Virus record (IMG/VR): IMGVR_UViG_2541047778_000015
Reading direction: 5' to 3' (one strand)
Origin: a virus
Lineage: Duplodnaviria; Heunggongvirae; Uroviricota; Caudoviricetes
Length of the DNA: 40,861 nt
The position numbers were made by a program, and so were the translations under genes. Below, in pieces: positions 3,369-35,292 of this stretch (the first letter of the stretch is position 1; the number at the start of each line of letters is the position of its first letter). Below the pieces are notes generated by a model. The model did not search any database. It was not told the DNA's origin and worked only from the letters and a program-made list of their open reading frames with translations.

Positions 3369-3395
3369 CCCGCAAAATATTGCGGGCTTTTTTTT
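3369..3395 (+). terminator. Plus-strand intrinsic terminator (hairpin plus T8) overlapping the tailspike stop codon
   Basis: CCCGCAA-aata-TTGCGGG followed by TTTTTTTT on the plus strand; the minus-strand reading lacks a U-tract, so it does not terminate the tailspike transcript. Confidence 0.6.
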
Positions 3396-6300
3396 AACGT
3401 TCTTCCAGAGACTGAATCCGCTCTTTTATCTTATCCATTTCTCTGCGCTGCCATGCTGCCTCGATATAGAATAAGAGATCAGGTCTGACCCCCCATCTAG
3501 ATCCTGCTGGCGTTATTTCAACGCGCTCAATGATGTCTTCCATTACCATCACTGGATTATCATCCTCATCAACAATGATGCTCCCGTCATTATCAGTCAG
3601 CGGAATTTCCCTTTGGCCAGTAATGACGTCATCATATACTGCGGGATAATCGTCATAGCAAAGAAAGGCATAGCGGCATGTTGTGCTTTCTTCTTCCATG
3701 AGTCCGTGAGAAATAAGAACATCACGAAGTTGCTGCGCGATTACACCATGATGTATCCTCGCCCCTTCTTCCCCCTTTATAGCGACAGCGTTCAGCCATT
3801 TATAAGCGATATACCTGACGTCACCCCAGGCATCCAGCAATGCTTCGTCAGGAGAGACCGGCTCTGTCTTTAATGTTCCGTCACTGGTAACCACAGGATT
3901 GGAGCCAAGATAAACTGTCGAGAACCTGTTTCCCGGACCACCAAGAGCATTTACATTATCAAGATAAGGTTTAACATCTCCGTTCTCAAAAAGATGTTCG
4001 AGTGCGTTATATACCGCGCGACGTGGAGTACTGCTTCTGGAACCATGCAACGTTATCATTGCACCATCTGCTGAAGACGTTGTTTCACCGCCGCTAACGA
4101 TTAATCTCTGAGCGGTAACATCATCAGACGGTACTTTCTTCGCAATAATGGCGTAATTACCCTCAAGTTTGACTTCCGCGCGAACTTGTCCTGATGTACC
4201 TGCATGGACAGTCAGTGACTGGACGGCAACATCATCTGTGAAATCAACGGGTACAGGAACCGTCCTCACGCCTGACGTCGACATAAAAGTAGGAAGCGTT
4301 CTGTTAGGAGTGGCTCCGTAGACAAAATCCCTTGAAACAAATTCTTCCTGTTTAATTTTCACCCTGAAACAATACAAATCAGCCGGGTGACCATCGTGAA
4401 CATAAGGATATTTTCTGTTGTTATCCCCTATGCTCCATGGGTTTAGAAAGTCTTCCCCACCGAAAATGTAGTACAGCCAGTTGTCTTTGATACAAACTGA
4501 ACCAACACCAACCGCAGAGTTAACTATTCCGCCCTGATAAATCTGATCAGTAACATTAACCCACTCTACATTATCCAGACTCCACTCATTGACGTTAACT
4601 CTGGTCATAAATGTTCTTGGATAATTTCCTGCATAACGGTTATCAGGTTCTCCTCCTTCCCACTCACCAAATGCGCGCTCACTGCCAAAAATAATCAGCT
4701 CATCGCCAACTTTGGCAAAAGGAAGGTTTGAGTGATGAACATTATTTGGGAAGCGAAGAGAATTCCATGATGTACCTAAATCAGAGCTTCTGTGCAATGA
4801 ACTACCGGGTTGAGTACTTAATGTCCCCCTGGTCGTCAGATACAGAATGCCATCATAATATTTTACACATGGCTCAGATGCATTCGCCTCATATTCTGCA
4901 GGTATGCGTCTGCGAACAAAGCTACCAGGAGAACCGAAAGCATCAGAGAAATAGAGTATCCCAAGCTCGCGTGGACCAATATCACCATTATGGTAGCCAA
5001 CAGCAAAACTGTTATCGCTAATCGTCGCAAAACTGTGAATCTCAGTAACAGGAGTGCTTCCGTCAACAAAAGAAGGAATAGTTCCAAGACTGGTTTTTCT
5101 CCATGGTGACGAGTGAAATGATGTACCAAAACTCCAGTATCTACCCTCGTTATTCTGATCCACATCCTGGGTATTTTGCGTCGTAACTGTAAAAGTATTT
5201 TTATCAATAACAGTAGTCACCGTCATATTCCCGGTAACACCTGTAACACCAGAGTTTGAGAAGTTGACAAAATCACCAGCAAATAATCCGTGATCAGTAA
5301 TGCGAATATAAGCGACTTGCTGATTTGCTGCTTTCGTTATACCACCATAAACGCGAAGGCTGCGACTCATTGGGCGATCCCACAACTCTGCAACCTGCAG
5401 TTTATTTCCGCTCACGGTCCGCGTCTCAATTACAGCAAAAAGGCGATTTCTGACAACCCCCATACTCATGCAGTGATAGTTAACTGTGGGATAGTTTTCA
5501 TGTAAATCTGTAAGCCATTCCGGCGTTGTCCAGGTCTTCCCGTCATCTCCTGAGCGAACCCATGCAACATGGAGGTTATTTACACCATGGCGGTCTCCAG
5601 CCATAAAAGGCGCATAGATGACATTGTCATATACAAACGTTTTATCCTGCGTCCAGGCGTTGTACCACGGTGTATCTGTAATTTTAAATAACTCTCCCTG
5701 GATAAAATCTTCAGAAGCATAAAAAAGAGGCTGACCCGGTATTCTCTCAAATAAAAAACGAGCATTTTTAAATCGGCTGACATCCGGAAGAGTTGATACT
5801 TTAAAAGTAAGCCCTAATCCGTCAATTTTATAACCTGGAGATGAGGCTTCAAGGCACGCGCTTATTGCAGTGGAATCGTCATTTATACCATCACCAACAG
5901 CTCCAAAATCTTTGGGGCTAATAGCATCACGCATTTTATCCTGGAACGTTCGGTACACAGCCCCAGAACCATACTGAATAAACCAACCAAAACCACCAAC
6001 AACCCCGGCGATTGCAGCATCGACATAATTACGCATTGAGCGATTATTTACAGCGTCCTGTTCAAGTGATGGATCTGCAAGGTTAGAAATTTTGTTTTGC
6101 TTTGCATCGTAATATTTTGCAAGCAAAGATGGTTTCATCAATGCACGTCTGAACCACCCAAAACATTGCTGGATCAGCATCGTCAGGTAGTCAAAAGCAT
6201 CTTCATGCACTTCGGGGAAAAATTTTCCCTGATTGCGAAGGTCTGTCTCCTGCACTACATCAAGCACACGATCTATCGTAATTCGCCATCCAGCAGCAAG

Positions 6301-6513
6301 CGGCGACGGAAGAACAACAGAACCGCCACTATAAGTGCCCGCCCCAGTTACCGTATAACCGGTATCCAGTACTAGTTCTGTTACGTTACCGTTAAGGTCA
6401 GACACCTGAACAACCAGGTCGGATTTTTTGAAAATACGGAAGGTATACGGAAATGATGTCGTAACGCCGTTACCAGTGTATTCGTTGTGGTCAACTTCGG
6501 TTGAGACCGTCAT
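3394..6513 (-). CDS. Tailspike / tail fibre with predicted C-terminal intramolecular chaperone domain
   Basis: 1039 aa; N-terminus resembles the T7 gp17-type adaptor domain; two Asp-box-like motifs (SGDDGKTW, SSDLGTSW); C-terminal ~160 aa resemble the peptidase S74 chaperone domain, with S-x4-K at VVTSDGTLK. Confidence 0.8.
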   Translation of the reverse strand: MTVSTEVDHNEYTGNGVTTSFPYTFRIFKKSDLVVQVSDLNGNVTELVLDTGYTVTGAGTYSGGSVVLPSPLAAGWRITIDRVLDVVQETDLRNQGKFFPEVHEDAFDYLTMLIQQCFGWFRRALMKPSLLAKYYDAKQNKISNLADPSLEQDAVNNRSMRNYVDAAIAGVVGGFGWFIQYGSGAVYRTFQDKMRDAISPKDFGAVGDGINDDSTAISACLEASSPGYKIDGLGLTFKVSTLPDVSRFKNARFLFERIPGQPLFYASEDFIQGELFKITDTPWYNAWTQDKTFVYDNVIYAPFMAGDRHGVNNLHVAWVRSGDDGKTWTTPEWLTDLHENYPTVNYHCMSMGVVRNRLFAVIETRTVSGNKLQVAELWDRPMSRSLRVYGGITKAANQQVAYIRITDHGLFAGDFVNFSNSGVTGVTGNMTVTTVIDKNTFTVTTQNTQDVDQNNEGRYWSFGTSFHSSPWRKTSLGTIPSFVDGSTPVTEIHSFATISDNSFAVGYHNGDIGPRELGILYFSDAFGSPGSFVRRRIPAEYEANASEPCVKYYDGILYLTTRGTLSTQPGSSLHRSSDLGTSWNSLRFPNNVHHSNLPFAKVGDELIIFGSERAFGEWEGGEPDNRYAGNYPRTFMTRVNVNEWSLDNVEWVNVTDQIYQGGIVNSAVGVGSVCIKDNWLYYIFGGEDFLNPWSIGDNNRKYPYVHDGHPADLYCFRVKIKQEEFVSRDFVYGATPNRTLPTFMSTSGVRTVPVPVDFTDDVAVQSLTVHAGTSGQVRAEVKLEGNYAIIAKKVPSDDVTAQRLIVSGGETTSSADGAMITLHGSRSSTPRRAVYNALEHLFENGDVKPYLDNVNALGGPGNRFSTVYLGSNPVVTSDGTLKTEPVSPDEALLDAWGDVRYIAYKWLNAVAIKGEEGARIHHGVIAQQLRDVLISHGLMEEESTTCRYAFLCYDDYPAVYDDVITGQREIPLTDNDGSIIVDEDDNPVMVMEDIIERVEITPAGSRWGVRPDLLFYIEAAWQRREMDKIKERIQSLEER

Positions 6514-6669: not shown

Positions 6670-6689
6670 TACTGTATAAATATACAGTT
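6670..6689. promoter_or_regulatory. LexA (SOS) box
   Basis: TACTGTATAAATATACAGTT: CTGT-N8-ACAG with an AT-rich spacer, close to the consensus TACTGTATATATATACAGTA; lies 20 bp upstream of the 6709 start and overlaps a TATAAAT -10-like hexamer. Confidence 0.7.
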
Positions 6690-6708: not shown

Positions 6709-6966
6709 ATGCAGCAGTATCACTATCCACTGGAAGACGGATTTACCGAAAGGATTCACACGCCGGGAGGCGTCAGATCACTGGTGGAGGGATCGCACTT
6801 GATGAAATTACTCCGGGATCTCGATAAGGATGGATTTAATGTCGATGGCCCACTTGCCGAACTGACTGCACTGATTAACTACGTCACCAGCTCACAGATG
6901 TCTATGCAGGATCTGCAAACACATCTCGACTATTGTGCCGAACAATTACGAAAACAAACCACATAA
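6709..6966 (+). CDS. Small protein homologous to the shared antirepressor C-terminal module (candidate SOS-inducible antirepressor)
   Basis: ATG at 6709 with GGAG 8 nt upstream (ORF track used TTG at 6691); the 85-aa product aligns with the C-termini of the 8112 and 10849 genes. Confidence 0.55.
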   Translation: MQQYHYPLEDGFTERIHTPGGVRSLVEGSHLMKLLRDLDKDGFNVDGPLAELTALINYVTSSQMSMQDLQTHLDYCAEQLRKQTT

Positions 6967-6990
6967 AGAAAAGGCCGCTCTAGCGGCCTA
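6967..6990. terminator. Hairpin between convergent genes (bidirectional terminator candidate)
   Basis: GGCCGC-tcta-GCGGCC with an A-run upstream (U-run for the minus-strand transcript). Confidence 0.45.
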
Positions 6991-7716
6991 TCGTTTCGCT
7001 TTGTGCTCGTCCCAGCACGTTTTGCACCATGCCATTAAGCCGTCCGCATTTTGATTATTAGGGTAAAAGCTAGTTCGTTTTCTGCGGACATTACAAATTG
7101 GGCACCACTTCATATGGCGTGTATTCTTTGGGCCATCGAGACACCTTGCACACCACTTAGTCAATCCATCTGGATTTTTTGACGATTTCCTGAATTTTTC
7201 ATATGGAAGGTTTATTCTGCATCGCAAGCACTGCTTGCTACCACTTGAAACTCTGTTAGCTGATTCTTCTTTTGGCGGCGATACAGAAGGTATTCTTGCT
7301 GGCTCTGATACTGCCTGAGGTGCTTTTTTAGATGACTGAGACGATATGTCATCACCAGGGAATCTTCCATGATATGCCGGACGCGTTGACACTCCGGGTG
7401 GAAGCTCAGCTGTAAACGGCTTTGGCTGAATCAGTTGCCTCTCTTTTGCTAACTCCTGCTGTTTATAATATGTCTGGATTACCGCGCTATCATAAGCAGG
7501 AGGTACGGAAATATTAGGCGCATTATCTCCCGTTTTTTGAAACTGAGTGGAGGTGTGTTCTATCACCTGTGTACGATTAATCGTTATCTCCCCATCTTCA
7601 GTCTTTATCGTTTTGTTATGATTAACGACCGTACGATCAGAGATCTTAGTCTTGTTCTGGTTGATAACGTAAATAATCACCGCAACCACACCAACAACTA
7701 CCCAGAAAACTTCCAT
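6988..7716 (-). CDS. Membrane-anchored protein with tandem Cys-rich (zinc-ribbon-like) repeats, unknown function
   Basis: N-terminal TM helix (MEVFWVVVGVVAVIIYVI); C-terminal repeats SKNPDGLTKWCARC and NQNADGLMAWCKTC plus further CxxC pairs. Confidence 0.55.
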   Translation of the reverse strand: MEVFWVVVGVVAVIIYVINQNKTKISDRTVVNHNKTIKTEDGEITINRTQVIEHTSTQFQKTGDNAPNISVPPAYDSAVIQTYYKQQELAKERQLIQPKPFTAELPPGVSTRPAYHGRFPGDDISSQSSKKAPQAVSEPARIPSVSPPKEESANRVSSGSKQCLRCRINLPYEKFRKSSKNPDGLTKWCARCLDGPKNTRHMKWCPICNVRRKRTSFYPNNQNADGLMAWCKTCWDEHKAKR

Positions 7717-7735
7717 TGCCTTTCCTCACAATAAC

Positions 7736-7752
7736 ATTACCTTAAAGGTAAT
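7736..7752. promoter_or_regulatory. Operator-like site ATTACC-ttaaa-GGTAAT
   Basis: Perfect 6-bp arms; 20 bp upstream of the start of the 6988..7716 gene. Confidence 0.5.
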
Positions 7753-7800
7753 ATCTTGCTTTCAGGTGATCAAGCGTTAAACGCAATCAACCAAATACGG

Positions 7801-7845
7801 TTGATTTTAATATTTCTTCGCGTTTATCATTACCTTTGCGGTAAA
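7801..7845 (+). promoter_or_regulatory. Sigma70-like promoter with overlapping operator-like site
   Basis: TTGATT, 18-bp spacer, TATCAT, with ATTACC-tttgc-GGTAAA (7829..7845) overlapping the -10/+1 region. Confidence 0.5.
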
Positions 7846-7960
7846 TTTACATCGCACTCCTCTTGTGCCATAGTAATCGGGCACTGGCAAAATCCAGTGC
7901 CGGGATTGGTCTCCCGGATTACTACAGAGGCACATATGCCGCATAAGCGGTTTTTTTATG
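7838..7960 (+). ncRNA. Candidate structured small RNA or leader/attenuator upstream of the Bro-N antirepressor
   Basis: Outer helix AGTAATC/GATTACT encloses hairpins GGCACTGG-caaaat-CCAGTGCC and GGGA-ttggtc-TCCC; followed by GCCGC-ataa-GCGG plus T7. Confidence 0.4.
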
Positions 7961-8111
7961 TGTAAAGCGCACCTATTCTATGGTGGGCTGTGTGGGGGCA
8001 CCGAAAGGTGCGCCGGGTTCCTTTGTAGCCGGTAAGACCAACTCTGCACAGTTCACCACCATCTGATTGGTCTCAGCGGTGGTGATTAACCTAACTACAA
8101 AGGTGATCGCC

Positions 8112-8804
8112 ATGAATACCAAACCTTCCATCTTTTCCTTTGAGTCATCCTGCCAGATCCGTATGTTCATGATTGACGGAGAACCTTGGTTTGTCACCAA
8201 AGATGTGTGCAATGCTTTGAATATTGATGTTACACAAGCGAGAAAACTTGATAAAAAAGGCTGGAACAAAAAGGGGCTGTATTCAATACAGACCCCTGGT
8301 GGAATACAAGAACTATCCATCGTTTCAGAATCAGGTCTCTACATCCTTATTCTGCGTTGCAAAGAGGCAATGACTGAGGGAACGAGAGCATTCAGATTTC
8401 TTGAATGGGTTACAGGTGAGGTTCTTCCTCAGATCCGCCGCACCGGAAGTTACATTAAAAACTCGCTCCCGCAGGAAGAACGCATAAAGATGGTTGCCGA
8501 CCAGGTAGCCAACGCCACAGCATCAGCAGTGATGCAGGCAATGAAGATAGAGAACAAAACCTACAGTGCCCCACTGAAGCCCGGCTACCGCAGCCTGATT
8601 CATTCTCCGTCTGGTGTTCTCGGCCTGACGGAGAACTCATTGCTTATGAATCTGCTAAACCAGTTACAGGAAGACGGGCACGACGTATCGGGCGCGGCGG
8701 CGGAGCTGACCACCATGTTCTGCTACATCGTCGGTGTGAGCAAATGCCTGCGTGATATCCAGACCCACGCGGAGTACATCAACGACAAGGCAGGGTTCTT
8801 CTGA
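8112..8804 (+). CDS. Antirepressor with Bro-N/KilA-N-type N-domain and shared C-terminal module
   Basis: Start at MNTKPSIFSF (ATG 8112); the N-terminal segment IRMFMIDGEPWFVTKDVCNALNI is Bro-N-like; the last 77 aa are identical to the C-terminus of the 9911..10849 product. Confidence 0.7.
   Translation: MNTKPSIFSFESSCQIRMFMIDGEPWFVTKDVCNALNIDVTQARKLDKKGWNKKGLYSIQTPGGIQELSIVSESGLYILILRCKEAMTEGTRAFRFLEWVTGEVLPQIRRTGSYIKNSLPQEERIKMVADQVANATASAVMQAMKIENKTYSAPLKPGYRSLIHSPSGVLGLTENSLLMNLLNQLQEDGHDVSGAAAELTTMFCYIVGVSKCLRDIQTHAEYINDKAGFF
8571..8804 (+). repeat. Inverted-repeat copy A (codes the shared 77-aa C-terminal module)
   Basis: Reverse complement matches 9911..10144 with about a dozen single-base differences by hand alignment, all synonymous. 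Confidence 0.8.
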
Positions 8805-8841
8805 CGGGCGGTGGCACAGGGATGTGCCTTTAAAATAATCA

Positions 8842-8886
8842 TTGGCGATGTGATGTAGATTCGCGTAATATTACCTTACGGGTAAG
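8842..8886 (+). promoter_or_regulatory. Promoter-like hexamers with operator-like site ATTACC-ttacg-GGTAAG
   Basis: TTGGCG, ~17-18 bp spacer, TAATAT, then the 17-bp palindrome at 8870..8886; upstream of the 8945 gene. Confidence 0.45.
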
Positions 8887-8944
8887 AAAGCGTTTTTAAT
8901 CTTCCCTTCAAAACGCGTCCTGTAGCCAAACATGGGAGGACGAA

Positions 8945-9577
8945 ATGAAAACAAATACAACAAGAAAAGCGATGCCATACATTATCCCAGAAGCAGATTT
9001 CGACAGAAAACTGAACATGTCTGAGAAGAACACTAGTCACACCGAAAGCTACTTAGCGAAAGGTGTGGTTGATTTCGTTCTTCCGGGATTCACAACACCT
9101 TATGGTTATCGCCTTGTAAAATCTTGTAATGGCGATCATTACAGAATGATTACTACCAGCGATACTCCAGAAACGGTGTATGCGGTTAAGTTAATCTTTC
9201 GGGAAGATATCGTCGAAGCTAAAAGAACATGTACGCAGATCATGGTATGGCGTACGCCTAATGTTATTCATGACCGTGCTGTTCATGGTTTGCCTCAGAT
9301 TTTTTTTCAGTTCTTTCTAGAGCAATATGCGATCGTTGTATCTGATGAGCAACAAACAATCGATGGGAGAAGATTCTGGGAAAGAATGATTTCTTGGGCT
9401 ATAAACACCCCGGGATATAATGTATACGTTTCAGATGGCTCTGAAGAAGATAGACCTCTTAGCTTCATGACATCATGGGATGATTTCTATAGCCAGTGGG
9501 CTGATTTCTGTTGGGGCAGTGATAAAGATGTGCATACCCACAGACTACTGGTTATAAGCAAAGATAAACTGCATTAA
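8945..9577 (+). CDS. Hypothetical protein, accessory cargo
   Basis: 210-aa ORF with its own promoter-like region and downstream terminator; no family recognised. Confidence 0.55.
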   Translation: MKTNTTRKAMPYIIPEADFDRKLNMSEKNTSHTESYLAKGVVDFVLPGFTTPYGYRLVKSCNGDHYRMITTSDTPETVYAVKLIFREDIVEAKRTCTQIMVWRTPNVIHDRAVHGLPQIFFQFFLEQYAIVVSDEQQTIDGRRFWERMISWAINTPGYNVYVSDGSEEDRPLSFMTSWDDFYSQWADFCWGSDKDVHTHRLLVISKDKLH

Positions 9578-9581
9578 TAGA

Positions 9582-9603
9582 AGCCCGCAGCGCGGGCTTT
9601 TTT
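9582..9603 (+). terminator. Intrinsic terminator
   Basis: GCCCGC-agc-GCGGGC followed by TTTTTT. Confidence 0.65.
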
Positions 9604-9675
9604 GTGGACGAAACAAAAGTCAGTGCTACACTCATTGACGCCACATTGAGGTGGCTTATAGATGGAAATTTCACA

Positions 9676-9837
9676 ATGAAAAAAGCATTTGCTGCACTGT
9701 TCGTTTTGTTGTCTCTGGTAGCTTCAACTCAGGCCTTTGCCGGTCGTTGTCAGCACGACAGCGATACTGCCGCTGACGGCTCCCGCTGCGGTGGGCGTTC
9801 TGCGGATTCCCGCCCGGGCGGCGGTGGCATTCGTTAA
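9676..9837 (+). CDS. Small secreted Gly/Cys-containing peptide (candidate)
   Basis: MKKAFAALFVLLSLVASTQAFA signal peptide, then a ~31-aa Gly/Asp/Arg-rich body with two Cys; start is the ATG at 9676 inside the longer ORF-track frame. Confidence 0.4.
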   Translation: MKKAFAALFVLLSLVASTQAFAGRCQHDSDTAADGSRCGGRSADSRPGGGGIR

Positions 9838-9860
9838 AAACAAGGCCGCGAAAGCGGCCT
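9836..9860. terminator. Hairpin terminator serving the minus-strand antirepressor gene (possibly bidirectional)
   Basis: A-run, then AGGCCGC-gaaa-GCGGCCT; read on the minus strand the hairpin is followed by a U-run. Confidence 0.5.
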
Positions 9861-9910
9861 GTGACATGTCACGCTAGTTTCGTTTTGCACGTCCCTGTGC
9901 CGCCGTTCTG

Positions 9911-10144
9911 TCAGAAGAACCCTGCCTTGTCGTTGATGTATTCCGCGTGCGTCTGGATATCACGCAGGCATTTGCTCACACCAACGATGTAGCAGAACAT
10001 GGTGGTCAGCTCCGCCGCCGCGCCCGATACATCGTGCCCGTCTTCCTGTAACTGGTTCAGCAGATTCATCAGCAGTGAGTTCTCCGTCAGGCCGAGAACA
10101 CCCGACGGCGAATGAATCAGACTGCGGTAGCCTGGCTTCAATGG
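9911..10144 (-). repeat. Inverted-repeat copy B (codes the shared 77-aa C-terminal module)
   Basis: See copy A at 8571..8804. Confidence 0.8.
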
Positions 10145-10849
10145 ATAACCATAACATTTTGTCTGTGTTTTAATTGCCTCACGAAGCGCATCTAACATCT
10201 TGACTGCCACTTCATCATTCTCTGATGCAGATCCAGCAGGGAGATACTCCCCTTCAAGCGGAACCCGAGCAACAAGAGACAACGCTTCGGCAAATTGATC
10301 TTCACCAATTTCTTTGTACGAACAGCCAAAATGAGATTTCAGTGACGACCACATGGTGATCATCGCCTTAGCCTGTTTTTCTTTTGGCAGAGACTGACCG
10401 CGACTCATGACGAGTTGTTTAATGGCTTCCTGCTGTTCAGTTGTTATTTTACCCGGCAACGCCTTTTTAGCTTTGCGTGGGTTAACCACATGGCCTTTAG
10501 TCCAGTACTCGTAGAGCACATCGTCACACTCTTCCTGATACTGGATTACCTTGTCGCGGATTTCAGGGCGGACTTTGTTAGGGCTGATGCTGTTCAACCA
10601 AGCTGCCAATTTTCGTAAAGCCATACAAATCATGGCTTGCACCCCACCGGCAGAAGGTATGGTGATTTCCACCATACCCTTCGAGAAGCGTTGAGAAATC
10701 TTCTTATGTTGAGATTTCCAGTCTAGCCCCATTCCCTCAACGATAGGTTTCATTGGGGTATACGGTTCGCCGTTGTGATTGACAACATAAAGCTCTGCGC
10801 CGTGGAATGGCACGTTGATAGTAGATACTGCTGTTGCTATACTCGTCAT
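9911..10849 (-). CDS. Antirepressor with P22 Ant-type N-domain and shared C-terminal module
   Basis: N-terminus YVVNHNGEPYTPMKPIVEGMGLDWKSQHKKI resembles the P22-type antirepressor N-domain; last 77 aa identical to the 8112..8804 product; sits downstream of an Arc-like gene as in P22 immI. Confidence 0.7.
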   Translation of the reverse strand: MTSIATAVSTINVPFHGAELYVVNHNGEPYTPMKPIVEGMGLDWKSQHKKISQRFSKGMVEITIPSAGGVQAMICMALRKLAAWLNSISPNKVRPEIRDKVIQYQEECDDVLYEYWTKGHVVNPRKAKKALPGKITTEQQEAIKQLVMSRGQSLPKEKQAKAMITMWSSLKSHFGCSYKEIGEDQFAEALSLVARVPLEGEYLPAGSASENDEVAVKMLDALREAIKTQTKCYGYPLKPGYRSLIHSPSGVLGLTENSLLMNLLNQLQEDGHDVSGAAAELTTMFCYIVGVSKCLRDIQTHAEYINDKAGFF

Positions 10850-10898
10850 GTCGTTAATTCCTATACGTAGTTTTACGATACTGAAGCCCTGACGGTCT

Positions 10899-10912
10899 GG
10901 CCACCGTGGGGC
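10899..10912. promoter_or_regulatory. Mnt-operator-like near-palindrome (GGCCACCGTGGGGC)
   Basis: Contains CCACGGTGG on the opposite strand, the core I recall from the P22 mnt operator; second copy at 11104..11118. Confidence 0.4.
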
Positions 10913-10921
10913 TTCGCTGTT

Positions 10922-11089
10922 TTATGCCACGCTATTCTTCTCACCAGTGAGTCCATACACTTTCCTCAGCTGATAGATAATCTCTGTATTGAACTTTCGG
11001 CATTCTTTTTCGCCATTTCTTTCAATAGCTAACTTCACATCGTCCGGAAAACGAACTCGTCGTTGACACATCTCTTTTGCTTTTTGCAT
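10922..11089 (-). CDS. Arc-like ribbon-helix-helix repressor
   Basis: Start at MQKAKEM with AGGAG 7 nt upstream (ORF track used GTG at 11110); RVRFPDDVKLAIERNGEKECRKFNTEIIYQL parallels the P22 Arc RHH region. Confidence 0.6.
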   Translation of the reverse strand: MQKAKEMCQRRVRFPDDVKLAIERNGEKECRKFNTEIIYQLRKVYGLTGEKNSVA

Positions 11090-11103
11090 TTCATATCTCC
11101 TTA

Positions 11104-11118
11104 GCCCCACCGTGGGGC
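11104..11118. promoter_or_regulatory. Mnt-operator-like near-palindrome (GCCCCACCGTGGGGC) in the arc/ant promoter region
   Basis: Perfect outer arms GCCCCA/TGGGGC; lies between the divergent mnt-like and arc-like genes; related CACACCGTG and CACACGGTG elements at 11130..11163. Confidence 0.45.
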
Positions 11119-11209
11119 AAAATAATTGTCACACCGTGCGTCATTGATGTCAAGCACACGGTGAGGCATACTTCAATCATTGCAAGTAACTCAATATTTG
11201 GTGAAGAAC

Positions 11210-11641
11210 ATGAGCAGAGAAGATCCACAACTAAGGATCAGACTTCCCGTCGAAGTAAAAGAAAAAATAGAAATTTCTGCAAAAGCCAATAAGCGATCAA
11301 TGAACGCTGAAATAGTACAACGTCTTGACACCAGCTTTCTGAAAGATATTCATGAAGATGACGTAATTTCTGCTTATGAAGCAAAAATCATTGCAAACAA
11401 TGCACGACATGAAATATCAAATATTATTTTCAAAAGAACCTTTAATGAAATTAATAAGAAAATAACACTTGGACATACAAGTTTTTATATAAACCTTAAT
11501 GACCTTGAACTGGAATCACTTGCAGATAATGATTACCAGATCATCTTTGAAAAAACATTTAATAGGCTCAATGAACTAGGTTACATCATCTGTGAAAACT
11601 CATGGGATGCAGATGGTTTTGGAATTGAAATACCTGAATAG
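11210..11641 (+). CDS. Mnt-like ribbon-helix-helix repressor with C-terminal extension
   Basis: MSREDPQLRIRLPVEVKEKIEISAKANKRSMNAEIVQRL parallels the P22 Mnt N-terminus as recalled; 143 aa, longer than the Mnt I recall. Confidence 0.65.
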   Translation: MSREDPQLRIRLPVEVKEKIEISAKANKRSMNAEIVQRLDTSFLKDIHEDDVISAYEAKIIANNARHEISNIIFKRTFNEINKKITLGHTSFYINLNDLELESLADNDYQIIFEKTFNRLNELGYIICENSWDADGFGIEIPE

Positions 11642-34707: not shown

Positions 34708-35292
34708 ATGAAAAGTATCCAGGACGTCCGCAGGCAAAATCTCAACGACTTGATCGACCGTGAATTCAATGGTGTTCAGACGCGGATGGCAGAAAAACTT
34801 GGAACTCAGGCAAATCTGGTAAACCGCTGGGCTCTTGGCAAGAAGGTTATCGGCGACCAGGTTGCGCGAAAAATTGAAGCTGCCGCCAATAAACCCCGTA
34901 ACTGGCTTGATATCGATCGCTCGCTTTCTCAGGAAGGTTTTCAGCCTGTCGGCCCAAGCGACATTGGTCAGCTGGCGGCTCACAACCTGGAACGCTGGAT
35001 GAGCGAAAGCCGCGACCTTTCAACACAGGGAAAACTTCACCGCGCATCCGGCGTCGCCCAGGTGACAATCAGCCGCCTGTTAAACAATGAGGTCAGCGTT
35101 TCCATTTCCACCCTGGAGAATGTTGCATCCGCATTCGGGCGTCACGGCTATGAATTACTGATTCACCCGCACGACCCTGCGACTATCAACTATGACCGCT
35201 CGCGCTACGCATTGTTACCCGAAACCGAGAAAGCAAAGATCGAAAGTTACATTGAATTTGTCATCAACCAGAACGAAAAAAACAAACAATAA
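34708..35292 (+). CDS. Prophage repressor with two HTH-like regions and no S24 autocleavage domain
   Basis: 194 aa; HTH-like segments near residues 24-46 and 110-145; no Ala-Gly / Ser-Lys peptidase region seen; divergent from cro. Confidence 0.65.
   Translation: MKSIQDVRRQNLNDLIDREFNGVQTRMAEKLGTQANLVNRWALGKKVIGDQVARKIEAAANKPRNWLDIDRSLSQEGFQPVGPSDIGQLAAHNLERWMSESRDLSTQGKLHRASGVAQVTISRLLNNEVSVSISTLENVASAFGRHGYELLIHPHDPATINYDRSRYALLPETEKAKIESYIEFVINQNEKNKQ

Follow-up and report, generated by a model that had tools for sequence, protein, structure and literature searches.

An SPC32H-type antirepressor module encoded three times, beside three different sets of regulatory elements, in an epsilon15-like phage of Escherichia coli

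We describe a small protein module that is encoded three times in one temperate phage genome. The stretch of DNA analysed (the window; 40,861 nucleotides (nt); IMG/VR virus record IMGVR_UViG_2541047778_000015) belongs to an epsilon15/phiV10-like (Uetakevirus) temperate phage of Escherichia coli, and taken as a whole it is similar to two epsilon15-like phages of that host, TL-2011b and phiV10. One copy of the module stands alone as an 85-residue protein (S type). The two others form the C-terminal ends of larger proteins (F type): one is headed by a Bro-N domain and the other by the P22_AR_N domain, and their genes lie in inverted orientation (Table 1). DNA of the module is present in 469 of 5,426 complete E. 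coli genomes, or about 9%.

Table 1 Position of the module copies, of the regulatory elements beside them and of the presumed target in the window.
Feature	Position	Strand	Basis or detail
LexA (SOS) box, CTGTATAAATATACAG	6672..6687		exact CTGT-N8-ACAG, 21 nt upstream of small ant start
Free-standing S-type antirepressor, 85 residues, SPC32H Ant orthologue	6709..6966	+	phmmer, tblastn, phrog_450
isrK-like small RNA with its own terminator, first element of c4-type immI cassette	7881..7957	+	Rfam RF01394
C4-type antisense RNA, directly upstream of Bro-N fusion	7976..8063	+	Rfam RF01695
Bro-N domain + linker + F-type module, 230 residues	8112..8804	+	Pfam, phrog_450
F-type module, copy 1	8571..8804	+	77 identical residues + stop; homology from near 8526
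Cargo slot between convergent antirepressor genes	8945..9837	+	PHROG matches; phrog_1349 ORF 8945..9577; small membrane-associated moron 9604..9837
F-type module, copy 2	9911..10144	-	inverted relative to copy 1; same protein, 12 synonymous DNA differences
P22_AR_N + middle region + F-type module, 312 residues	9911..10849	-	Pfam, BLASTP to CUS-3 Ant
sar antisense RNA, antisense to arc-ant gap	10851..10918	+	Rfam RF00262
Arc-like small repressor, first gene of arc-ant operon	10922..11110	-	phrog_228, BLASTP
Mnt-like ribbon-helix-helix repressor, divergent from arc-ant	11180..11641	+	Pfam Arc, PHROGs
Prophage repressor Rep, presumed common target of the three modules	34708..35292	+	5D50_A homology

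The two fused copies end in the same 77 residues (PLKPGYRSL...NDKAGFF), numbered 154-230 in the Bro-N protein and 236-312 in the P22_AR_N protein. Translation and alignment agree here with a first-pass annotation, made from the letters alone, that had called these ends identical and had counted about a dozen DNA differences between them, all synonymous. Aligning the 234 nt of copy 1 with the reverse complement of copy 2 gives exactly 12 differences, ten at third codon positions and two at first positions of leucine codons, and 12 of 12 are synonymous. With 54.8 synonymous and 176.2 nonsynonymous sites (NG86), the proportion of synonymous differences (pS) is 0.22, the synonymous divergence (dS) about 0.26 and the nonsynonymous divergence (dN) 0. 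When 12 substitutions were drawn at random 100,000 times, not one draw was fully synonymous, and an analytic estimate puts the probability of such an outcome at about 0.237^12 = 3e-8. DNA identity of the long copies, which the annotation had named as one case against it, was looked at, and 12 differences were found; as all of them are synonymous (P ~3e-8), the copies are neither DNA-identical nor an assembly artefact. The alignment and dN/dS comparison that it had proposed show constraint.

Homology reaches beyond the identical residues on both sides. Downstream, the two long copies stay homologous for about 25 nt past the stop codon, through a small hairpin; upstream, homology of lower identity extends for some 13-15 further residues (AVMQAMKIENKTYSA versus DALREAIKTQTKCYGY). 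The homologous module is therefore really about 90-95 residues long, which fits the 88 columns of phrog_450 and a 95-position profile. The 85-residue open reading frame (ORF) had been put forward as a third, diverged copy. It is indeed a paralogue of the fused module, to which it aligns over the full length with 39-40% identity.

Identical ends on inverted genes might have arisen by a duplication not long ago, by an error of assembly or by gene conversion that is still going on, and not by selection on the protein. In favour of this, the two copies form inverted repeats of 95% DNA identity, in which stretches of as many as 47 nt are the same, and the population does contain inversions of this region. 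This explanation is nevertheless refuted: besides the 12 synonymous differences out of 12, the same three-copy layout recurs in TL-2011b and in 14 loci of our set (13 independent viral contigs and the window), and 106 F-type copies fall into 90 DNA haplotypes. In 25 genomes with two copies, the protein pair is identical in 14 cases and differs by one residue in 11, and the mean number of DNA differences is 9.4 within genomes versus 8.5 between genomes. Sharing a genome thus does not make two copies more alike, which excludes recent duplication and gene conversion; concerted evolution was rejected on the same numbers. We saw no clear signal of selection for synonymous divergence that would suppress recombination of the inverted copies, as antN-broN pairs gave 10.6 differences within and 9.9 between genomes.

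The 106 copies carry 54 variable sites with 56 synonymous and 4 nonsynonymous variants. Synonymous diversity (piS) of the F module is 0.149 and nonsynonymous diversity (piN) 0.0013, with omega at about 0.01-0.03, in population samples made of the best 80 matches by protein identity, a choice that biases piN downward. In 24 second copies that had not been selected on protein identity omega is about 0.03, and 11 of these 24 match the window protein exactly. The first-pass annotation had argued for constraint and against a recent duplication, and the population supports it on both counts. That the window pair is exactly identical is what strong purifying selection, helped by some luck, would be expected to give. 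The S gene has a piS of 0.016 in the E. coli population, about 10-fold below that of the F module.

By sequence and predicted fold, the repeated module is an SPC32H-type antirepressor Ant. The S copy matches chain E of PDB 5D50 ('Anti-repressor protein') over its full length (phmmer, E 1.3e-47) and is 88% identical to SPC32H ant in tblastn. All three copies match phrog_450, with E values from 1e-34 to 1e-47 (1.4e-47 for the S copy). The F module reaches 5D50_E at E 1.5e-13, with 39% identity over residues 1-72 (phmmer). Modelled alone with AlphaFold2 (AF2) it has a pLDDT of 87, and Foldseek aligns this model to 5D50_E with a probability of 1.00, TM scores of 0.71/0.82 and a root-mean-square deviation of 1.3 A over 67 columns; no other PDB entry matched it below E=1. 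For the Bro-N fusion as a whole the AF2 model was poor (mean pLDDT 64, 53-67 in the module, below 50 in the linker), and Foldseek found no match for it at E<=0.001. The profile search that had been suggested for the module alone leads to an antirepressor and not to a family of another kind. The module was not recognised as a named domain at first pass, and this holds for Pfam and NCBIfam, in which, as in PADLOC, we found no model for it; there are, however, a solved structure (5D50) and a PHROG family. PHROGs labels phrog_450 'unknown function', although the structure has been deposited.

The module family is small: among 1.84 billion representative proteins, a profile search hit 61 clusters. 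Positions invariant across the family are Y8, G25, L29, S33, L39, G46, V49, E55, Y62 and H76 (alignment numbering). The copies number 305 on viral contigs and 582 in E. coli genomes. Searching with the 77 residues found short proteins only (19 matches), and the full-length query was needed to reach the family (968 matches). One 84-residue metagenomic protein (P0013) is a natural chimera, with an S-like N-terminal half (QQYHHPLEDGFTERIHTPAGVRSLVE) and an F-like C-terminal half (DGHDVSGAAAELTTMLCYIAGVSKCLRE), so S and F types can recombine and remain viable.

SPC32H Ant is a small helical protein of about 86 residues, a tetramer of which reportedly breaks the DNA-binding tetramer of the repressor Rep (Kim et al., 2016, PNAS). 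According to a secondary summary (PMC9638917), the Ant tetramer binds two Rep dimers and splits the DNA-bound Rep tetramer.

A repressor of the same kind is encoded in the window. The ORF that the first-pass annotation had pointed to as the repressor is a full-length homologue of 5D50 chain A ('Repressor'; phmmer, E 4e-42), and its C-terminal domain alone matches 5D4Z at E 4e-20; the N-terminal domain spans residues 1-88 and the C-terminal one 89-194. Its identity to SPC32H Rep is 42%. The SPC32H-type Rep family is present in 34 of the 34 deposited phage records that hold the module family. Identity to the window, for the F type and Rep respectively, is 97-100% and 98.5-100% in E. coli phages, 78% and 78% in Enterobacter phage Tyrion, and 55% and 45% in a Klebsiella phage; the 98.5-100% for Rep holds in every E. 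coli phage record with the F type. Simple co-evolution of Ant and Rep roughly fits the F type and fails for the S type (88% versus 42%). Across 80 loci Rep is a single protein encoded by 54 DNA haplotypes (piS 0.08), and since these loci are the best 80 matches by protein identity, the single protein is partly an effect of selecting them. The proposal that the module is a shared, repressor-binding effector is thus backed by homology to SPC32H Ant in sequence and fold, by Rep in the window and by the co-occurrence in all 34 records. From homology and models, we infer that the fused modules would bind the window Rep and form tetramers.

Each copy has regulatory elements of its own. Three different input contexts had been supposed at first pass, and those we find are a LexA box, a pair of isrK/C4 RNAs, and a set of Mnt, Arc and sar. 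The LexA box belongs to the S copy. Among related loci (79 viral contigs), it stands 21-22 nt upstream of 71 of 75 small-ant copies, and no LexA box was found within 400 nt of 106 fused genes. Small, free-standing and LexA-controlled are terms that fit the S copy with its 85 residues and not the fused copies with 230 and 312. Directly upstream of the small ant lies a tailspike/tail-fibre gene of 1039 residues (3394..6513, minus strand), and the order of tailspike, small ant and large antirepressor is kept in all relatives examined, even where the tailspike is a different one.

The second copy follows two RNAs that are both matched over their full length by Rfam models. isrK scores 74.7 bits (gathering score 50) and comes with a promoter-like site (7846..7874) and a terminator-like hairpin (7938..7951) with a T-run; C4 scores 78.6 bits (gathering score 45) over model positions 1-87 of 87. 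In the protein, Bro-N (PF02498) covers residues 16-106 (E 1.8e-13, 51.4 bits, cutoff 25.6), and residues 147-228 match phrog_450 at E 3.2e-37. A protein cluster that is 100% identical to it (P0020) carries the name 'BRO-like protein'. The isrK and C4 pair also precedes the fused gene in Enterobacter phage Tyrion, in a Klebsiella phage and in two distant prophages. A leader ORF of 25 codons (7959..8036, plus strand; MCKAHLFYGG...) overlaps the C4 RNA. In the window it stops 75 nt before the Bro-N start codon, and elsewhere it is fused in frame, giving 279-residue forms; a fusion of orf45 to anrP has been noted in S. dysenteriae in work on Gifsy-1 isrK (PMC4825925). This suggests that it is the RNA, not the leader peptide, that has been conserved.

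A phenotype has been reported for a protein of this kind. When ORF4 of phage ZX5 was overexpressed, prophage counts fell from 1e9 to 1e6, with about 1000-fold fewer lysogens (PMC9782041). This ORF4 is a Bro-N fusion whose module is 100% identical to that of the window, and the ZX5 Rep is also 100% identical to the window Rep.

Along the Bro-N gene, the N-domain has a piS of 0.4-0.64 and a piN of 0.15-0.38, while linker and module are strongly constrained. The Bro-N domain (8112..8570 and related loci) is hypervariable, its alleles being 62-100% identical, with piN/piS of 0.3-0.8. Its last 30 residues (FLEWVTGEVLPQIRRTGSY...) are almost invariant, even synonymously (piS 0.03), and this invariant end looks like a recombination junction for the exchange of heads and tails.

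The third copy sits in a complete immI cassette of the arc-sar-ant-mnt type, as judged from its sequence. P22_AR_N (PF10547) is found at E 5.9e-45 (152.6 bits), and P22_AR_C (PF10548) had no Pfam match in the protein at E<=1. The Ant of the P22-like phage CUS-3 is nearly identical to the window protein from residue 1 to about 200 (89% over a BLASTP alignment of 222 residues). Beyond about residue 200 similarity drops, and CUS-3 has P22_AR_C (E 5e-29, residues 207-279) in the place of the module. With P22_AR_C replaced by the module, the window protein is a chimera and not a full member of the P22 Ant family. sar scores 44.8 bits (gathering score 43) over model positions 1-68 of 68, and a promoter-like site (10815..10843) lies just upstream of it. 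The Arc-like gene is weakly marked, by phrog_228 ('Arc-like repressor', E 3.4e-05) and by BLASTP to P22 Arc (E 4e-05, with a provisional query sequence); its orthologue in TL-2011b is annotated 'Arc-like repressor', and a promoter-like TTGACA-17-GACAAT lies upstream at 11153..11125. The Mnt-like gene has a Pfam Arc domain (E 1.2e-14), matches phrog_1388 and Arc-like PHROGs, and occupies the place of mnt in P22 and CUS-3.

The order of these elements is constant in the 79 viral contigs and TL-2011b: tailspike (minus strand), small ant (plus strand, with LexA box), isrK/C4, fused gene and a variable cargo slot, after which a second, convergent cassette of the P22 type or again of the c4 type may follow. 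Behind isrK/C4 the head of the fused gene is Bro-N or AntA, and complete E. coli genomes, searched separately, showed ORF6N there too. Synteny and RNAs are kept in Tyrion, the Klebsiella phage and the two distant prophages, one of which has a Rha head. Overall five families of heads were seen on the module (Bro-N, AntA, P22_AR_N, ORF6N and Rha), and the module is always C-terminal. In a distant prophage, the c4-controlled Bro-N is kept and the C-domain is unrelated, with divergence setting in right after an IRRTGSY/IRKTGKY motif; in the E. coli alleles this motif lies within the low-diversity stretch.

The module might be mainly a tetramerisation domain in the fusions, with the heads (Bro-N, AntA, Rha, ORF6N and P22_AR_N) as the active parts, which regulate by binding DNA or bind other repressors, and with C-termini that are not Rep antagonists. 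Variation of the Bro-N domain (piN 0.15-0.38) is what one expects of a domain facing variable targets, and the AF2 N-domain weakly resembles the N-domains of Mbp1/APSES and of baculovirus Orf22. We take these heads to belong to the KilA-N/Bro-N-like superfamily of predicted DNA-binding domains that Iyer et al. treated in 2002. SPC32H Ant is a homotetramer as well, according to the secondary account in PMC9638917. Yet a generic tetramerisation domain would not be expected to occur with one repressor family only, as in the 34 of 34 records, nor to swap with P22_AR_C exactly when the repressor type of the phage changes, and its family would hardly be as tiny as 61 cluster representatives among 1.84 billion proteins. 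In SPC32H, moreover, the free-standing module alone is a sufficient antirepressor (5D50 complex). We consider this explanation unlikely.

The fusions might instead act in trans, on related repressors of resident or co-resident prophages, or co-assemble with the S-type Ant and modulate it. The immI antirepressors of P22 and P1 classically act on repressors of resident prophages. S and F types stay distinct across Escherichia, Enterobacter and Klebsiella phages, which implies non-redundant roles, and the chimera P0013 joins the two types in one protein. Crosstalk of antirepressors in trans is documented for Gifsy and Fels-2 prophages (PMC3121763, as summarised in PMC7380047). Set against this, Rep is 98.5-100% identical in all E. 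coli phage records that carry the F type, so that within this group 'own' and 'foreign' Rep are the same, and ZX5 ORF4 acted on ZX5 itself. Such action in trans seems to us a little less probable again than the tetramerisation role, and it overlaps with our preferred explanation more than it opposes it.

That preferred explanation, to which we give a probability of roughly 0.65, is that one Rep-binding, tetramer-forming module is deployed three times under separate inputs; it draws on homology, structural models and analogy with known phages. Lysogeny would be held by the SPC32H-type Rep. DNA damage would derepress the LexA-controlled 85-residue Ant and lead to prophage induction, following the logic of SPC32H, 186 Tum and Gifsy. 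The Bro-N fusion would be governed by the isrK/C4 antisense RNAs, as in P1/P7 immI and Gifsy-1 isrK-anrP, and the P22-type fusion by arc-sar-ant/mnt, as in P22 immI. Both immI-type circuits would be silent in their own lysogen. By analogy, we infer an anti-immunity role for these fusions, which most likely would serve infection and superinfection, or else answer to non-SOS signals. The C-terminal module would set which repressor is attacked, and the swappable N-domains would add an accessory function. It is the swap with P22_AR_C in CUS-3, together with the unrelated C-domain of the distant prophage, that suggests a choice of repressor by the C-terminal module. The fused proteins would be identical because a small module that has to self-assemble and to fit an invariant Rep should be under very strong purifying selection.

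Several points weigh against this explanation. With no more than 39-40% identity to the S type, the F type could recognise a different surface or partner. Between E. coli and Salmonella phages the S-type Ant is 88% and Rep 42% identical, so co-evolution of the two is not simple. The mechanism of SPC32H is taken from a secondary summary, and the ZX5 ORF4 result is a crude overexpression phenotype. The population samples were chosen by protein identity, with the downward bias of piN given above. Finally, this explanation does not account for the N-domains, and there are also F-type proteins of 95 residues that stand alone.

A bolder form of the three-input scheme can be imagined, which we hold to be improbable. 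Differently headed proteins that share the identical module might co-assemble into mixed tetramers and so merge the regulatory inputs in one Rep-disassembling complex, from which the diverged S type (40%) would be insulated. In that case the hypervariable N-domains might serve as heads for sensing or targeting, caught up in an arms race, and the frozen pair of module and Rep might define an immunity group.

Two observations concern the neighbourhood of these genes. Between the small ant and the isrK/C4 RNAs lies an ORF of 242 residues (6988..7716, minus strand; phrog_6762), whose N-terminus has a transmembrane helix and whose C-terminus has two CxxC zinc-ribbon repeats that resemble motifs of Endonuclease VII, Lar and Stc1; it is found in only part of the population. 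The content of the cargo slot differs between related loci (also at 5354..6307 of locus L001), with a YafO-type toxin in TL-2011b and HicA/HicB-like and Rap1a genes in distant relatives.

Parts of this region (around 8805..9910 in the window) also change orientation, seemingly driven by the inverted antirepressor cassettes. Locus L011 carries a block of about 2.7 kb, with both c4-type cassettes in it, in the opposite orientation to L022 and L013, between collinear flanks. In L021 it is the cargo gene that is turned round with respect to the P22-type ant.

All components described here have known counterparts. The window resembles the Ant-Rep system of the Salmonella epsilon15-like phage SPC32H (5D50/5D4Z; Kim and Ryu, 2013, J Virol; Kim et al., 2016) in its 88% identical Ant next to the tailspike, in the LexA box and in the Rep family, and its fused modules share the sequence family and the fold. 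SPC32H and epsilon15, in contrast, have only the free-standing copy, at one place per genome, whereas in the window two larger proteins without LexA control end in the module as well (F about 40%, Rep 42% identical). Shuffling of the N- and C-domains in two-domain phage antirepressor, Bro, KilA and Rha proteins was reportedly described by Iyer, Koonin and Aravind in 2002. The fusions follow this plan, with an interchangeable N-domain (Bro-N, AntA, ORF6N, Rha or P22_AR_N) and an interchangeable C-domain. This C-domain lacks a Pfam or NCBIfam model. Unlike in most such proteins, its structure has been solved together with its target, which gives the C-terminal half a concrete role.

With P22 immI the window shares the gene order, P22_AR_N, a sar above its gathering score, and the Arc-like and divergent Mnt-like genes. 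It differs in that its Ant has an SPC32H-type module for P22_AR_C and in that the phage is epsilon15-like with a non-lambdoid repressor; its Mnt-like protein has 153 residues, that of P22 about 83. The c4-icd-ant genes of P1/P7 immI and the isrK-orf45-anrP genes of Gifsy-1 (PMC4825925) are matched by full-length isrK and C4 hits upstream of a Bro-type 'antirepressor' gene; a short leader ORF overlaps the RNA and is fused in frame to the gene downstream in some loci. Here the protein ends in an SPC32H-type module, an icd-like gene is lacking, the window leader ORF is shortened to 25 codons and control by RNA is predicted. Finally, ORF4 of vB_EcoP_ZX5, called 'anti-repressor' (PMC9782041), is a Bro-N fusion with the same module and Rep (both 100% identical) and an antirepressor-like phenotype. 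ZX5 differs from the window in having no P22-type copy, the module being at two places in its record, and the paper uses the terms 'SPC32H', 'LexA' and 'Bro-N' zero times each, with no mention of a small ant, of RNA control or of the homology. In the limited literature that could be searched, we found no description of the SPC32H Ant domain as the C-terminus of 'BRO-like' or anti-repressor proteins, and none of three classic circuits that converge on one repressor in one phage. What had not been annotated is this convergence and the identity of the module in the two large proteins; since no individual component (SPC32H Ant-Rep, P22 immI, P1/Gifsy c4-isrK, shuffling of N- and C-domains) is new, the advance is one of synthesis and not a new mechanism.

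Few regulators of temperate phages are as common and as poorly understood as the antirepressor, Bro, Rha and KilA proteins, and the role of each half is rarely known. Here the C-terminal half can be tied to a crystallised repressor-antirepressor complex, and nature provides a swap of P22_AR_C for the module on a nearly identical N-terminal body. The case exposes a gap in annotation as well: a module with a structure in PDB 5D50 goes without a Pfam or NCBIfam model and under a PHROG label of 'unknown function'. It also offers a compact model, a 40-kb phage found in about 9% of complete E. coli genomes whose one repressor is apparently reachable through three switches. From this follows a testable rule, that the C-domain chooses the repressor; should mixed tetramers prove true, it would extend to the Bro/KilA/Ant/Rha class as a whole, with the C-domain giving repressor specificity and the N-domain serving as an accessory head.

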